A stretch of 64,000 nt of DNA, from assembly GCA_963828735.1 (NCBI GenBank), contig CAWHFW010000004.1:64001-128000 (forward strand), written 5' to 3'. This DNA is from an uncultured Gemmatimonadales bacterium. GTDB taxonomy: Bacteria > Gemmatimonadota > Gemmatimonadetes > Gemmatimonadales > GWC2-71-9. Within the stretch, counting starts at the first letter, position 1. The number at the start of each line of letters is the position of its first letter. The position numbers were made by a program. Shown here piece by piece: positions 1 through 57,000 of this stretch.

Positions 1-3000
1 CGACAGCACCGGTCGGGTCGTCGGGCCCGGTGACTTCCAGGCCCAGGCCGAACGGGTGTTCGGCAACCTGCGCGTGGCCCTCGCGAGCGTCGGCGCATCC
101 TTCGCGAACGTGCTCAAGACCACGACGTACATCACCGACGTCAAGAACGTCGCGCCGCTTCGCGAGATCCGTGCCCGCTATTTCGATCCCGGGCACCCGC
201 CCGCGAACACGCTCATCGCGGTCGCGGCGCTCGCACGGCCGGAGTTCCTGCTCGAGATCGAGGCCGTCGTGGACCTGCAACGATGACGCCGGCCGTGCAC
301 CTGCTCGTCGTGGAGGGCTTCGCCGATTGGGAGCCCGCCTACGCTCTGGCGGAGCTCCGGCGCAGCGGCGGGTTCGAGATCGTGACCGTCGGCTTCACCG
401 CCGACGCCGTTCGTTCGATGGGCGGGGTCCGAGTGCTGCCCGACAAGGCCCTGGCCGCGGTAGCGGTGCCCGAGGTGCGTCTGCTGATCCTCCCGGGCGG
501 GGATCTCTGGGAGGGCGACTACCCGCGGTCGGAGCTCGAGGCCTTGCTCCACCGGCTCGCGGCCGCGGACGTACCGATCGCGGCGATCTGCGGCGCCACG
601 CTGGCCGTCGCGCGCGCCGGGCTGCTGGATGATCGCGCGCATACGAGCAACGAGCTCGCGTACCTGCAGCGCATGGTCCCCGGCTACGCCGGCGCCGATC
701 GCTACCTGGACGCGCTCGCGGTGCGCGACCGGGGGCTCATCACGGCCAGCGGGCTGGGGCCGACGGAATTCGCTCGCGAGATCTTTCAGGAGCTGGACGT
801 TTTCGGCCCCGAAGACCGGCAGCTCTGGTATCACGTCTTCAAGCATGGACGGTACCCGGAGGCATCCGAGCGTCCGAGTTGACGGCCGCGGACCATCGGC
901 CGTCAGCCGCGCCCCTCAGTCGCTTTCCCGCCCGACGTGCGCGCCTCGCCCTTCCCGGCTAACATGCAGACATGACGTCCGTTCGCCGTCCATCGCTCGA
1001 CCGTGATCTCCCCATGCATCTCGATCTTCCTCATCAGACCTATCCCGGCGCTCCGATCGATGATCCAGCGGTGCTCGAACGACTGCCGTCCGAGCTGGCT
1101 TCGGCGCTGCGCCGGCGAAACGGTTGCGTCGGGTTCCTCGGCGCCCTCCACGTACGCGGCGCCTGCCTCGCGCCGGCCTGGCACTCCCTGCGCCACGCCT
1201 GGGATGGCCCGGACGCGCTGCACGAGCTCTACACGGAGGTGGACCCGGCGGATGTCCCGTTCGCGGAGGACGGCTTCGGAGACCAATTTCTCATTCGGCA
1301 GGGTCGAGTGCTCCGCTTGAGCGGCGAACTGGGGGAGATCGAGGACCTGGCGAGCTCGCCCGCGGAGTTCTTCGCCCGCCTCATCACCGACGCCGAGCAG
1401 GTGCTCGACTACGAGCCGCTCCTCCGGTTCCGCGACCAGGGCAACGACCTTCGTCCGGGCCAGGTCCTCGCCGCCCACCCGCCATTCGTGCTGCAGGCGG
1501 CCGGGACCGGGCGCGAGCTCCGCGCGGAGGATGCGATCGAGCGACGCCGCACGCTGGCCGCGCTGGCCAAGCGCCTGCACGGGCTGCCCGACGGCGCGCA
1601 CGTGCGGCTGGACGGTCTCGCCTGACGGAGCCGGCGTCGATGCCCGACCGGCCGAGCTCGGTGTTGCGTCGGCTCACGAACGGCGTCTACGTGGTGGGCG
1701 TCGTCCACGAAGGGCGAGTGAACGCGTTCACCGCCGCCTGGATTACGCAGGTTTCCTTCGAGCCACTGTTGATTGCGCTGAGCATCAACCCGCGGAATGC
1801 CTCCTATTCGCTGCTCGAGCGGAGCGGCGGGTTCACCGTGAGCGTGCTGGGGCGAGGCCGGCTCGAGCTCGCGGATCACTTCGGCAACCAGTCCGGGCGG
1901 GACACGAACAAGCTCGAGGGAATGCGCTGGCGGTCGAGCCGCAACGGGGCTCCGGTGCTGACCGACGCGGTGGCGTGGCTCGAGTGCCGGGTCACCGCCT
2001 CGGTGCCGGCGGGCGATCACGCGTTGATCGTGGCGCGAGTGACGGGTGGTGCCGTGATCGATCCGTCCCTTGCGCCCATGACCTACGAGGAAACCGGCGA
2101 TCTCGACGGCAGCACCGGGTTGTATCCCGCTGAGTTCCGGGGGTGATGGCGTTCGCGCGGAACGCGGACCCGGTGGTCCGCTCGACCCCGGCCGGCGGAC
2201 CGAGGCCCACACCAGCCGAGGTCGCCGCGGCGGCGGGCCGGACCGTCCCGGACCTGATCGCGCCGGGACTCGCCGTTCTGTTCTGCGGCATCAATCCCGG
2301 CCTGTATTCCGCCGCCACGGTCCACCATTTCGCACGCCCGGGCAATCGGTTCTGGCGGGCGATCCGTGACGCGGGATTCACCGACGGGCTGATCCATCCC
2401 TGGGAGGAGCGCCGGTTGCTCGAGCTCGGCATCGGCATCACGAACCTCGTGCCGCGCGCCACCGCCGGCGCCTCCGAGCTCACCGCCGCCGAGCTCCGAC
2501 GCGGTCGGGCGCGGCTGGCCGCGAAAATCGGACGCTATCGTCCCGGGTGCCTGGCCGTGCTCGGCATCGGCGCCTACCGCGCCGCGTTCGCCCGACCGCG
2601 CGCGACCTTCGGGCTTCAGGAGGAGACGATCCGGGAGACGGCGGTCTGGGTGCTGCCCAATCCCAGCGGACTCAACGCCAACCATCAGCTCGCCGATCTG
2701 GCTCGCGCGTTCCGGGAGCTCCGGCTGTTCGCGAGCCGGACCGGCCGTCATGAATGACTGCTCCCCCCAGCGGGCCATGAAGACCTTTCACCGCCGAGGC
2801 GTCCGATGACCCGGCCTGCCGCGTCCCTCATGCTCGTGCTCGTGCTTGCGTGCGAGACGCCCGCGCCGAAGAGGCCTGCCGCCGCCCCGGCGGCGCGCAC
2901 GCCGCCGACAGAGGCCGCGATCGGCGAGGCGGCCGTCGCCGCCGTCGTCGCCGCGCCCTGGGACCGGGATCCCACAGGGTGGGGCACCCTGTGCACGGCC

Positions 3001-54000: not shown

Positions 54001-57000
54001 AACGCCGCCGTGGTGATCCCGCCGGAGTTCATGCGCGACGTGCGCCGCGGCCGCAGCGCCCAGGCGCAGGTGATCGTCGACGCCGCCGACCCGCTGGCCT
54101 CCTCCTCCGCGCTGTCGAGCGCTCAGCTCGCCGCCGCCGCGCGCGCGGCCGAGATCGCCGGGCCCGGTCCGGCGCCGCTCGACGTTCGCGTCCGGCCCTG
54201 GTACAACCCGGGTCTTCGGAGCGCGGTCTACATCGTGCCGGGCATCATCGGGGTCCTGCTCTCGCTGACGCTGGTGCTCATCACGAGCATGGCGATCGTC
54301 CGCGAGCGCGAGCGCGGCACGCTCGAGCAACTCATCGTGACACCGATCGACAAGACCAGCCTGATGCTGGGCAAGATCCTCCCCTTCCTGCTCATCGGCT
54401 ACGTTCAGATCACGGTCATCCTGGCGCTCGGCTGGATTTTGTTCCGGGTGCCGGTCCTCGGGAGCCTGCCGTTACTCTACCTGCTCAGCTTCGCCTTCAT
54501 CGTCGCCAGTCTGGCGCTCGGGCTCCTCATGTCCACGCTGGTTCGGAGCCAGGTGCAGGCGATGCAGCTCAGCTTCATGTTCCTCATGCCGAACATCCTG
54601 CTCTCCGGCTTCATGTTTCCGCGGCAGGCCATGCCGGTGCTGGCCCAATGGATCGGCGCGGCGTTGCCGCTCACCTACTTCCTCACGATTCTCCGTGGCG
54701 TCCTGCTCAAGGGCGTGGGTCTCGGCGAGCTCTGGCCCCAGGCGCTGGCCCTCGTCGGCTTCGCGATCGGACTGGTCGCGCTGAGCGTCATGCGCTTCCA
54801 CAAGACGATCGAGTAGGCCGCGGGCCGTCACTATACTTCGCGGATGCCGCCAGCCGGGCTCGCAGCTTCGCCTCCGCTCGGGGTGACCCTGAGCGGCACG
54901 GGAGCCCACTTCGCTCTCTTCTCGGCGCATGCCACCGCGGTCGAGCTCTGTCTGTTCGCCGACCCTTCCGACGCCACCGAGACGTTCCGGATCCCGCTCG
55001 AGCGGGACGGGACGAATGTCTGGCGCGCCGACGTGCGGGGGGTCGAAGCAGGCCAGCTCTACGGCTATCGCGTGCACGGTCCCTACGCCCCGGAGCGTGG
55101 GCATCGCTTCAACCCCGCCAAGCTGCTCATCGATCCCTACGCGCGCGCGCTGAGCGGCTCCGTGGCGTGGCACCCCTCCCTGGCGAGCCATCCCGGCTCG
55201 GAGCCGGGGGCGGCGCCGGACCCGTCCGCCGATCCGCGCGACAACGCGGGCGCGCTGCCCAAGTGCGTGGTGGTGGATGCCGCCTTCGACTGGGGTGACG
55301 ACCGGGCCCCCCGGACGCCGTGGGACCGTACCGTCATCTACGAATGCCACGTCAAGGGCATGACGATGCTCCATCCGGACGTTCCGGAAACGCTGCGGGG
55401 CACCTATCTGGGCCTGTCCAGCGAGCCGATCATCCGCCACCTGCGGGACCTGGGCGTCACGGCCGTGGAGCTGTTGCCCGTTCACCAGGAGGCGAGCGAG
55501 CCGCGCCTGGCCCAGCTCGGGCTGGACAACTATTGGGGCTACAGCCCGATCGCCTACTTCGCGCCCGACGTCCGCTTCGCGACCACGAAACTCGGCGGTC
55601 AGGTGACGGAGTTCAAGCGGATGGTGCGCGAGTTCCACGTTGCGGGCTTCGAGGTGCTGCTCGACGTGGTGTACAACCACACCGCCGAGGGCGGCGATAC
55701 CGGGCCGACACTCGCGTTCCGTGGCATCGACAACGCGGCGTACTATCGGCTGGATTCCTCGCACCCGGCTCGGTACGTGGACTTCACGGGCTGCGGGAAC
55801 ACGCTGGACGTGCGGGCGGACCCGGGACTGTCCCTTGCCATCGACAGCCTGCGTTACTGGGTCGAAGAGATGCACGTGGACGGCTTTCGGTTCGACATCG
55901 CGCCGGTGCTGGGGCGCCTGGACCCCATGTTCGACCGAGGCGCGCCGTTCTTCGAGCGCGTCCGCGGTGATCCCGTGCTCGGCGCGGTCAAGCTCATCGC
56001 GGAGCCATGGGACCTGGGCCCCGACGGGTACCAGGTCGGGAACTTTCCGTCGGGATGGGCGGAATGGAACGGCAAGTACCGCGACGCCGTGCGGCGGTTC
56101 TGGCGCGGTGACACGGGCCGCGTGAGCGAGCTCGCCTCACGCATGGCCGGAAGCAGCGACCTCTACGGGCCCCGCGAACGCGGCCCGCTCGCGAGCGTCA
56201 ACTTCGTGACCTGCCACGACGGCTTCACGCTGCATGACCTCGTGAGCTACGAGGAGAAGCACAACGCGGCCAACGGAGAGGGGAACCGGGATGGCAGCGA
56301 CTACAACCTGAGCCGCAACTGGGGCGTCGAGGGCCCCGCCACGACCACCCAGATCGCGCGGGTCCGCGAGCGCGTGAAGCGGAGCCTCCTGGCCACCCTG
56401 GCCTTTTCGCAGGGCGTCCCGCTGCTGTCGCACGGCGACGAGCTCGGCCGCACGCAGCGCGGCAACAACAACGCCTACTGCCACGACGGACCGGTCACCT
56501 GGGTCCACTGGACCCTGGACGCCGATCAGCGCGCGATGCTCGCGTTCGTTCGCCGGGTCCTGGCCCTTCGCGCGGCGACTCCGGCGCTGCGCCGGCGGAC
56601 GTTCTTTCCGACCACGACGACCGACGGCGACGGATTGACCTGGCTCCGCGCCGACGGCACCCCGATGGGCGCCGAAGACTGGGCCCACGATGGGAACCAC
56701 GTCCTCGGCATGCAGTTCGAGGGGAGCGACCCGATCCTGCTCCTGATGAACGGGGGCGGCCGTTCGCGAGCGTTCGTGCTGCCTGAGCGGCCGAAGGGCT
56801 GGTGGGTCCTGCTCGATACCGCGCACGAGGGCGAGCGGCCCGTCGAGTCGGGGCTCACGCTCGCGCCGCACTCTCTCGTCCTGCTCAGGCAACGCTAGGA
56901 GCTCGCCATGCGTCTCGATCCCGTCTCTCCGGGCGCCCGCGTCCGCCTCACCGACGCCGGCGCGGCGGCGCCGCGCGGCGCGCCGTCGGAGGAAGCAGCC

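Follow-up and report, generated by a model that had tools for sequence, protein, structure and literature searches.

Islands anchored at tRNA genes consist of variable accessory genes lying behind a tRNA gene. A complete integron requires an integrase gene (intI), an attI site, and at least two attC sites. [quoted passage not shown] In Treponema, intI is described as transcribed toward attI (PMC3607928). For sedentary chromosomal integrons, the attC bottom strand is reported on the leading-strand template (PMC5371416), and the Vibrio cholerae array is presented as a functionally isolated, deletable unit (PMC11551772). A cassette gene that becomes sedentary through attC loss has been called de-recruited (PMC1382264), and slippage deletion of attC has also been described as a route to domestication (10.1101/2022.09.11.507474). 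Cassette fixation by attC loss is already predicted in print (10.1101/030866; for single genes, PMC1382264); our literature search found no array-scale case. Integron surveys count attC sites and are therefore blind to genes that integrons delivered and then released.

We analyzed a window of 64,000 nucleotides from the genome of an uncultured soil bacterium of the Gemmatimonadales (here G000; the assembly is 97.5% complete, in 7 contigs), position 1 of which is position 64,001 of contig C4. The window holds most of a block of small genes at C4:55034-118820 (Table 1), downstream of a tRNA-Leu(TAA) gene, that is, tRNA-Leu(UAA), at C4:54839-54923. The first-pass annotation had read this block as about 100 former integron cassettes and had counted 108 genes, 98 on one strand, with a median product of 156 amino acids (aa). 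Our own dicodon gene caller gave 104 genes, 95 on the plus strand, with a median of 153.5 aa versus 258 aa for the genome. The description of the block as tightly packed, at host G+C, and rich in cassette-type families also held: the median intergenic gap is 29 nt, G+C over block windows is 0.67 to 0.73 versus 0.69 to 0.70 per contig, and Pfam recovered GNAT, glyoxalase, DinB, SnoaL, RidA, cupin, YCII, and Cdd1/TfoX_C domains in a set of 108 proteins that included 5 flank genes and 2 alternative open reading frames. The smallness of the genes is unmatched among the 3610 other 104-gene windows, where the lowest median is 170.5 aa, or 221.5 aa when 85 or more genes of the window share a strand. 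Strand bias, which had been offered as evidence for an array, was dropped as evidence for an integron; it is common to block and flank (46 of the 50 genes upstream are on the plus strand) and is not distinctive. Contig C4 has a weak positive GC skew (0.008 to 0.014) and mostly plus-strand genes, which is compatible with an attC bottom strand on the leading-strand template.

Table 1. Features of the window (window positions) and what relatives show at the corresponding genes
Feature	Position	Strand	Remarks
Window part of the attC-free array, 85 gene starts	1..54816	+	C4:55034, the start of the block, lies 9 kb ahead of the window and follows galK and tRNA-Leu(TAA)
Proximal zone: genes common with closest relatives, order different	1..16732	+	Six close relatives become collinear from gene index 30-46 onward
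Distal zone, collinear with the G104 attC-free tail and with G102	16745..54816	+	42 collinear G104 orthologues from gene index 46
Uracil-DNA glycosylase family gene	2146..2757	+	G102 homologue (68% identity) has an attC left half directly behind it
ABM-like gene	6472..6798	+	G113 and G107 have homologues of ~50% identity as attC-followed cassettes
DUF488 gene	10281..10724	+	Distant G104 homologue (34%) is an attC-followed cassette
RidA family gene	36382..36741	+	G109 homologue (39%) is an attC-followed cassette
Distal genes, DinB-like to 132-aa gene, one on the minus strand	47732..51178	+	The most distant long arrays still have them in this order; boundary at gene index 95-98
TetR / HlyD / ABC ATPase / ABC permease operon, far end of block	51301..54816	+	Pfam; overlapping stop-start codons
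glgX-like gene, distal boundary of block	54883..56898	+	Pfam
Prephenate dehydrogenase (tyrA), distal anchor for locating the site in relatives	59147..59995	+	

The G000 site holds none of the three parts of a complete integron and none of the attC sites that define a CALIN. As the first-pass annotation had claimed, intI and attC are both missing: no G000 protein exceeded the TIGR02249 cut-off for IntI, tblastn gave no match in the block region, and nhmmer found no attC match of at least 15 bits in the block with a profile built from 24 attC sites of the genus and order, which an older, different attC type could escape. A covariance model run over 84 kb with filters off returned only chance-level hits (best E value, 0.22); the same model detects 13 attC sites elsewhere in G000. 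The attI and Pc-like motif seen behind intI in 6 intI-bearing relatives, at the level of motifs only, is absent from G000. Matrices for the left and right attC half-sites matched 0 of 96 block genes; in relatives, remnants followed 74 of 222 attC-zone genes and 4 of 74 genes in the next 10 kb, over a background of 29 in 4258. Gene ends in the block showed no enrichment of GCC plus stop, GCCTRAC, or upstream GTTRGGC, and a fused GCCTAGG scar, noticed on visual inspection of individual genes, was dropped because it is rare everywhere (1 of 96 in the block). Pfam assigned neither an integrase nor a transposase domain to any block protein, and contig C4 carries no copy of the tRNA 3′ end. In a PADLOC run on 16 proteins of the block, the matches were all of the DUF488 type apart from two weak ones, and we therefore rejected a defense island. 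Contig C2 of G000 carries a CALIN with ~19 attC matches; no intI lies, by coordinates, beside its head gene in the 90 relatives with that gene (genomes at least 70% complete).

We read the orthologous site in 38 of 102 relatives, picked for long contigs or an adjacent intI. The link to an integron, for which a single relative had been cited, turned out to be stronger than claimed: intI or a stub stands at the site in 9 of 38 relatives (G020, G022, G044, G062, G092, G113, G098, G104, and G102), attC without intI in 2 (G107, 31 matches; G109, 20 matches), and neither in 27. The gene is full length in G022, G062, and G104, has an internal stop in G098 and frameshifts in G092 and G113, is cut in G020, and runs off the contig end in G044; G102 has an intI stub and an attC array. 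In G020, the relative cited originally, intI does begin ~114 nt behind tRNA-Leu, spans only TIGR02249 positions 1 to 230, and is interrupted by an IS481-like transposase; the counts became 23 attC matches, partial ones included, over ~28 kb (not 14) and 20 reciprocal best hits with the block (not 19). A de novo hairpin scan of G020 for attC was discarded because its hits were largely false positives in coding sequence and the majority of true sites escaped it. The set of 38 leaves out G018, G090, G096, G108, and G111, which were unread at the site, a 1.4-kb stretch of G089, and a region on C2 of G104 that was excluded as a galK paralogue; attC coordinates in G090 and G111 lie 120 to 145 kb upstream of tyrA. 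Array size behind tRNA-Leu ranges from 13 to 168 kb across the genus, and a genome from another family, G032, has no such array in the 17 kb read.

The site integrases form one clade (support, 0.997) together with two integrases of unknown site. In FastTree trees rooted at the midpoint or by one long, two-genome outgroup row, G104 and G102 fall inside the clade of G000, G022 in its sister clade, and G098, G020, G113, and others outside. Relatives with intI, attI, and attC at the orthologous site bracket G000 on the tree, and the presence of an integron at the site of the block in the ancestry of G000 is supported.

The close relative G104 (82% identity in tyrA) has an intact intI, an attI-like site, and 42 attC matches, followed by a tail of 122 genes without attC. 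It holds 59 orthologues of block genes: 2 before intI, 0 in the attC zone, and 57 in the attC-free tail. Because 57 of 59 lie there, the block is most likely an old tail that was attC-free before the integron was lost. Tails of 122 to 155 genes without attC are present in all 6 of the intI- or attC-bearing arrays that were read to the far end.

Several properties change with distance along these arrays. The attC score declines in 5 of 7 arrays (rho, −0.41 to −0.72), the exceptions being G109 and G092. GC3 climbs beyond the last attC at P < 0.01 in 7 of 13 regions; the other 6 include G000 (rho, 0.22; P = 0.022). Gradients run on past the last attC in 5 of 7 attC-bearing arrays. Sharing with other genomes increases distally in all 4 arrays tested (rho, 0.44 to 0.68) and does not rise along G000 (rho, 0.15; P = 0.12).

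Gene order shows a similar polarity, and the earlier observation that distal order is kept and proximal order shuffled held up in the six close relatives. Orientation is conserved in 618 of 625 orthologue pairs. The collinear stretch is shorter with divergence in tyrA identity (rho, −0.79; 17 genomes), a trend made of three clade-level steps rather than independent points and one that lacks significance when ppk2 identity is used instead (rho, −0.31; P = 0.23). Two intI-bearing sets contain 22 displaced genes; moves toward the front, as excision and re-entry there would produce, exceed backward moves by only 16 to 6 (P = 0.052). The clade of G000 conserves the genes at the very front, adjacent to the tRNA; in G104 and G102 these genes precede intI, so the array grew at attI and not at the tRNA; the first four block genes precede the intI position. 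The distal genes with the most widely conserved order would be the oldest layer of the block.

Direct homology to cassettes supports few block genes. Among block proteins of at most 300 aa, 5 of 93 match attC-followed stretches versus 33 of 2399 in the background (P = 0.012), with a small set of 212 such stretches from 8 genomes; a first set of 136 stretches gave 3 of 93 (P = 0.09), and one matching gene sits before the intI position. The corresponding figure for the C2 CALIN is 10 of 42. Cassette homologues fall from 44 of 258 genes in attC zones to 23 of 231 over the following 30 kb and 26 of 502 farther out, the figure for the remainder of G000 being 19 of 2399, and 88 attC-free array genes have a homologue of at least 55% identity elsewhere with attC behind it. 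Homology thus directly supports a cassette origin for only 3 to 5 block genes; for the others we infer it from position, gradients, and gene order.

In our view, the block is likely to represent an old tail, devoid of attC, that belonged to a sedentary chromosomal integron located behind tRNA-Leu(UAA) in this genus. By established integron biology, new and re-inserted cassettes would enter at attI and displace older ones outward. With distance from attI, attC sites would decay and be deleted, spacers would contract from hundreds of bases to tens, and codon usage would shift toward that of the host, a process that we deduce from gradients that are themselves observed; through this loss of attC, retained genes would no longer be excisable. 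Most attC loss occurred in the tail while the integron was still intact, as G104 shows. Judging from the series of intact G104, the G102 stub, and G000, the lineage of G000 would then have lost intI and attI together with all of the attC-bearing head, where a 218-nt gap now lies (C4:56506-56723). On this reading the head was lost after tail decay, so the block is not an array that decayed following integrase loss. The remainder would be mostly small stand-alone enzymes of detoxifying, repair, and stress type, which have become ordinary genes of the chromosome, alongside some of other provenance. The interpretation in the first-pass annotation is, then, supported in part, with most attC loss placed before that of intI and with ~100 former cassettes as an upper bound; about 80 to 85 genes are candidates once the 4 pre-intI genes, the 4 genes of the TetR/HlyD/ABC operon, which is probably not cassette-derived, and 9 opposite-strand genes are set aside.

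An unlikely alternative is that an island of small genes behind tRNA-Leu predates the integron and grew by ordinary horizontal transfer, with the integron inserted later at its head, so that only a thin zone past the last attC would be cassette-derived. The low direct cassette homology (5 of 93), the lack of any attC trace more than 10 kb past the last site, and the presence in the block of the ABC operon and six genes of >400 aa fit this reading, and a GC3 slope is expected from any one-ended growth. It is also favored by 15 complete short arrays (13 to 33 kb) of one clade that never contain intI or attC and share homologues with other arrays in 304 of 491 genes, but this clade nests among intI-bearing lineages under both rootings tried. 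Nor does an older island account readily for site integrases that form one clade, growth at attI rather than at the tRNA, or gradients that cross the attC boundary. The intI-free clade has 0 displaced genes (36 families in 12 genomes, fewer families and hence less power) versus the 22 above, and the block has neither a tRNA-end repeat nor an integrase or transposase domain.

We judge it quite improbable that a tail which began as cassettes has kept turning over, with single genes still moving or arriving without attC, by homologous recombination between arrays of related strains or by an integrase acting in trans at non-attC sites, such that much of the block would be younger than attC loss. 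G000, G086, G088, and G063 lack attC at the site and differ from one another in gene order, 6 of the 22 displacements run backward, for 8 of 105 genes the other arrays read offer no homologue, and integrase insertion at non-att genome sites is described (10.1101/2022.09.11.507474). The reordered genes, however, are proximal, where attC would have stood when the lineages split, while distal order is kept; the intI-free clade shows no displacement; and contigs from four runs, which drop rare variants, show no evident rearranged form over the first 11 kb. RNA runs contained little of the sequence (word shares of 0.08 to 0.12). There is only a negligible chance that the missing head is an assembly artifact in which a repeat-rich part collapsed. 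attC sites are repeats and the G000 assembly is incomplete, but a 2361-nt contig from run X1 (possibly the source sample) crosses the intI gap with 5 differences, the same state recurs in 27 of 38 relatives, and the C2 CALIN was assembled with its attC sites.

A second block, at C5:405000-438900, had been proposed to have the same origin, and we could confirm this only in part. It has 39 genes, 33 (not 32) of them on one strand, and in G088 an intI followed by 13 attC matches lies 4.3 kb behind its upstream anchor gene. Among the 88 relatives that possess the anchor, coordinate comparison shows this link in only 1, and the G088 contig ends before any distal gene of the block. The intI of our G025, a different genome from the one so named in the first-pass annotation, lies behind two tRNA-Met genes and not at the second block. 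It is moderately probable that the genus runs a conveyor in which cassettes enter at attI, lose attC within ~30 to 70 kb, and then persist as fixed, operon-like runs of 100 to 150 host-adapted genes that outlast the integron; such tails would escape tools that rely on attC, a genome may have them at several sites, and they may form a sizeable share of accessory genes.

The tRNA-Leu site displays intact, decaying, and fully erased states across one genus, and in these relatives one can follow how mobile genes, once captured, turn stage by stage into fixed, ordinary-looking ones. Position dates the genes, and this polarity makes testable the rate of attC loss, the cassette functions that are retained, and the gain of expression by promoterless cassettes.

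Among known systems, the relatives of G000 resemble sedentary chromosomal integrons of the Treponema type in an IntI above the TIGR02249 cut-off, intI in the direction of the cassettes, an attI-like site behind the 3′ end of intI, tens of similar attC sites, and small co-oriented genes. The intact relatives differ from that type by an attC-free tail of 70 to 100 kb, longer than the attC zone, and G000 differs by lacking intI, attI, and attC. With a tRNA-anchored island the site has in common variable accessory genes behind a tRNA gene; it differs in having no integrase and no tRNA-end repeat, in its host G+C, and in a variable edge at the attI position. An old tRNA-anchored island could have lost both its integrase and its repeat. 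Like a CALIN, the block is an array left without intI, and G107, G109, and G102 are CALINs at the same site; a CALIN is defined by attC, whereas the block has zero attC and would be the end state of CALIN degeneration. The picture at the G000 site contrasts with the Vibrio cholerae array, described as isolated and deletable (PMC11551772). De-recruitment and domestication, as described for single genes inserted elsewhere (PMC1382264; 10.1101/2022.09.11.507474), are alike in that attC loss makes genes sedentary; at the G000 site the loss would have taken place in situ, across an array of ~100 genes.

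The genome under study (4.78 Mb, 7 contigs, 69% G+C; window at C4:64001-128000) carries a tRNA-Leu(TAA) gene behind galK, and between this gene and glgX our own dicodon model, trained on the genome, called 104 genes, 95 of them on the plus strand. Their proteins have a median length of 153.5 aa, the intergenic gaps a median of 29 nt, and none of 3,610 other 104-gene windows of the genome has equally small genes. The cassette-type families listed for this block in the first-pass annotation were all present, and its statement that the block lacks an integron integrase (IntI) and attC sites was confirmed: IntI is absent from the whole genome, and a profile HMM, a covariance model, and half-site matrices (0/96 genes) detected no attC in the block. 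The same attC tools recovered a CALIN, an attC cluster without integrase, on contig C2. A contig from metagenome run X1, which may be the source sample, bridges the place where intI would stand, and an assembly gap is therefore unlikely as the cause of its absence; where labelled, the runs containing the sequence were from soil and rhizosphere. The strand bias, which had been offered as integron evidence, is no evidence by itself, because the upstream flank is equally biased (46 of 50 genes).

We located galK, tyrA, and IntI in 103 genomes of the genus. Of the 102 relatives, 38 were read at the site, chosen because their contigs are long or an intI adjoins it; seven reads were partial (G022, G044, G045, G052, G062, G092, and G112). 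Nine relatives carry intI or a stub of it, 2 carry attC only, and 27 carry neither. Genus-wide, attC matches occur in 87 of 103 genomes and IntI over the cut-off in 32 of 103, tallies that take in four unpublished genomes, which serve for no other claim. The relatives' attC sites are typical, with inverted ends and 10 predicted pairs, 5 of which have changes on both sides, and six relatives share, at the motif level, a TTGACA-like motif and an attI-like site past the 3' end of intI. Eight site integrases form one clade together with two integrases of unknown site (support 0.997); the closest plasmid-collection match of one relative's site integrase was from Gemmatirosa kalamazoonensis (59.8%), a single clue by which the phylum is probably Gemmatimonadota.

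In G104, a relative whose tyrA is 82% identical to that of our genome, the site opens with tRNA-Leu and orthologues of the genes that lead the block; then come an intact intI, attI, an attC zone (42 hits across 27 kb), and a tail of 122 attC-free genes that runs up to glgX. Among 59 reciprocal best hits between the block and G104, 57 lie in the tail, 2 before intI, and none in the attC zone, and 42 of the block's orthologues are collinear from window position 16745 on. In its sister G102, intI is reduced to a 5' stub and 11 attC hits remain in the head, the attC-bearing front of the array; in the 218-nt gap at the matching place in our genome, we detected no trace of intI or attC. A FastTree phylogeny of galK, tyrA, ppk2, and glgX grouped our genome with G104, G102, G086, and G088 (support 0.947), and the sister clade includes G022, which has an intact intI. 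Given the G104 and G102 states, the gap, the gene tree, and the integrase clade, an integron very probably stood at this site in the ancestry of the genome, and the block corresponds to the tail, which in the intact integron of G104 is already attC-free. The galK orthologue is absent before tRNA-Leu in G104 and in another relative, G098; the remaining flank is retained in both. The attC profile scores of G104 are mostly 35 to 67 bits, with a few over 100, a split that suggests two putative attC types in the genus.

A cassette origin of the tail is supported by gradients along the arrays. In 5 of 7 arrays, attC sites score lower the farther out they lie, GC3 goes on rising beyond the last attC in G113, G107, G020, G104, and G102 (rank correlation with array position, 0.40 to 0.68), and intergenic gaps narrow from about 240 to 380 nt to 10 to 30 nt (G113 and G107), gaps and gene counts in attC zones being rough because the dicodon caller under-calls low-G+C genes there. 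Past the last profile hit, half-sites were found at 4 of 74 genes over about 10 kb and then at none. Cassette homologues account for 44/258 in attC zones and then for 23/231 and 26/502 within tails, and the background in the rest of our genome, core genes included, lies below the tails' rates (19/2,399). In 88 cases, 3 of them in the block, a homologue with at least 55% identity to an attC-free array gene is followed by attC elsewhere. Gene sharing among genomes increases distally; proximal order is permuted, and orientation is retained in 618 of 625 orthologue pairs (18 of 35 regions, those with 12 or more orthologues). Collinear stretches begin at gene 30 to 46 in close kin, 82 to 98 in intermediate, and 95 to 96 in distant relatives, as expected if shuffling was limited to the attC-bearing front at each split.

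Positions of features in the block, elsewhere in the genome, and in other genomes
Feature	Position	Observation
Macro-domain gene	C4:61053	Another of the block's 3 such genes; 71% to a G098 gene that precedes a decayed attC
Uracil-DNA glycosylase gene	window 2146	Among the block's 3 genes with an attC-followed homologue
ClpP-family gene	window 8687-9274	Common to at least 9 relatives at the tRNA-Leu site; unusual for the cassette pool
tRNA-Gln(CTG), ARAGORN call, 95 nt	window 21199-21293	Within a predicted 135-aa gene; probably spurious
Putative serine beta-lactamase-family gene (PF00144), first of 2 in block	window 25683-27098	
Putative serine beta-lactamase-family gene (PF00144), second	window 38014-39228	Homologue (59%) adjoins intI in other-family genome G034
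CALIN	C2:675300-714200	G+C 0.653; attC intact at head (713-714 kb, minus strand), partial toward 680 kb
Second block	C5:405000-438900	
Clusters of homologues of genes in relatives' tRNA-Leu arrays	C5:1750000-1900000, 2150000-2250000, 650000-700000, 400000-500000; C3:150000-200000	8-16 per 50 kb
Single or partial attC outside arrays	C5:1006376, 1007617, 1039590, 1063533, 1638675, 2084179, 2196766	C5:1638675 is 160 nt behind tRNA-Phe
intI of other-family genome G025	C2:622441-623900	Behind two tRNA-Met genes
Counterpart of the G025 intI place in our genome	C2, about 269-282 kb	Loose small-gene run, several response-regulator-like ORFs
intI copies of G098	C1:3703320-3704261; C2:249120-250061	One internal TAG in each

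Other results speak against this origin or limit its extent. Cassette matches were found for 5 of 93 small block proteins versus 10 of 42 in the C2 CALIN, and for 3 of 93 with a first, smaller cassette set (P = 0.09). The GC3 slope is weak or absent in 6 of 13 regions, the collinearity-boundary trend consists of three steps at clade level and does not hold with ppk2 identity, and displacements number 16 forward versus 6 backward (P = 0.052), or 17 versus 9 in a third, overlapping set. The 15 genomes of one clade carry short arrays that lack both intI and attC and in which 304 of 491 genes are common with other arrays. These arrays would be a pre-integron island if the clade branches first; if it is nested, as both rootings suggest on a tree with a long outgroup row taken from two genomes, they are reduced tails. 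The block as such stands, and the roughly 100 former cassettes claimed for it come down to about 80 to 85 candidate genes, not all 104, because 4 genes come before the intI position, 4 make up an ABC operon, 9 are on the minus strand, and 6 are >400 aa.

The block was probably built by an integron. It is itself neither an integron nor a CALIN, because the defining parts of both are absent, and it is most likely the end state of such elements. Cassettes enter an integron at attI. The series of site states, the gradients, and the fact that in G104 the block lies behind attI are direct observations. Selection would retain those distal genes that are useful as they lose their attC sites by deletion, the head may have gone through one or a few deletions, and the block genes may now be expressed on their own. 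Deletion of folded attC via replication slippage is described in the accessible part of 10.1101/2022.09.11.507474.

The C2 CALIN shows the same decay as the tRNA-Leu site, and the protein of its first cassette is 93% identical to that of a G102 cassette at the tRNA-Leu site; cassettes therefore move between sites. The second block proposed earlier was recovered as a small-gene block (33 of its 39 genes on one strand; median, 158 aa; cassette matches for 2 of 28 small proteins). A relative with intI and attC at this place was also found: in G088, intI and 13 attC hits lie 4.3 kb behind the upstream-anchor orthologue and reach the contig end. This link is through one genome with no distal gene visible, and the second block is therefore a candidate fossil tail. 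The homologue-rich bins on C5 and C3 are further candidates, with a less distinct pattern of strand bias and gene size.

In their accessible parts, 10.1101/030866 puts forward degenerate CALINs as one stage on the way to the definitive stabilization of genes, PMC1382264 reports single-cassette de-recruitment, and PMC8618304 lists Gemmatimonadota among integron-bearing phyla; those of 10.1101/2025.06.18.660453 and 10.64898/2026.03.17.712381 hold nothing on attC-free tails. Our literature search, which covered main-text passages mostly from outside subscription journals, did not turn up an attC-free tail on the scale of an array. In the relatives, intI points in the cassette direction, a layout known from Treponema according to the accessible part of PMC3607928.
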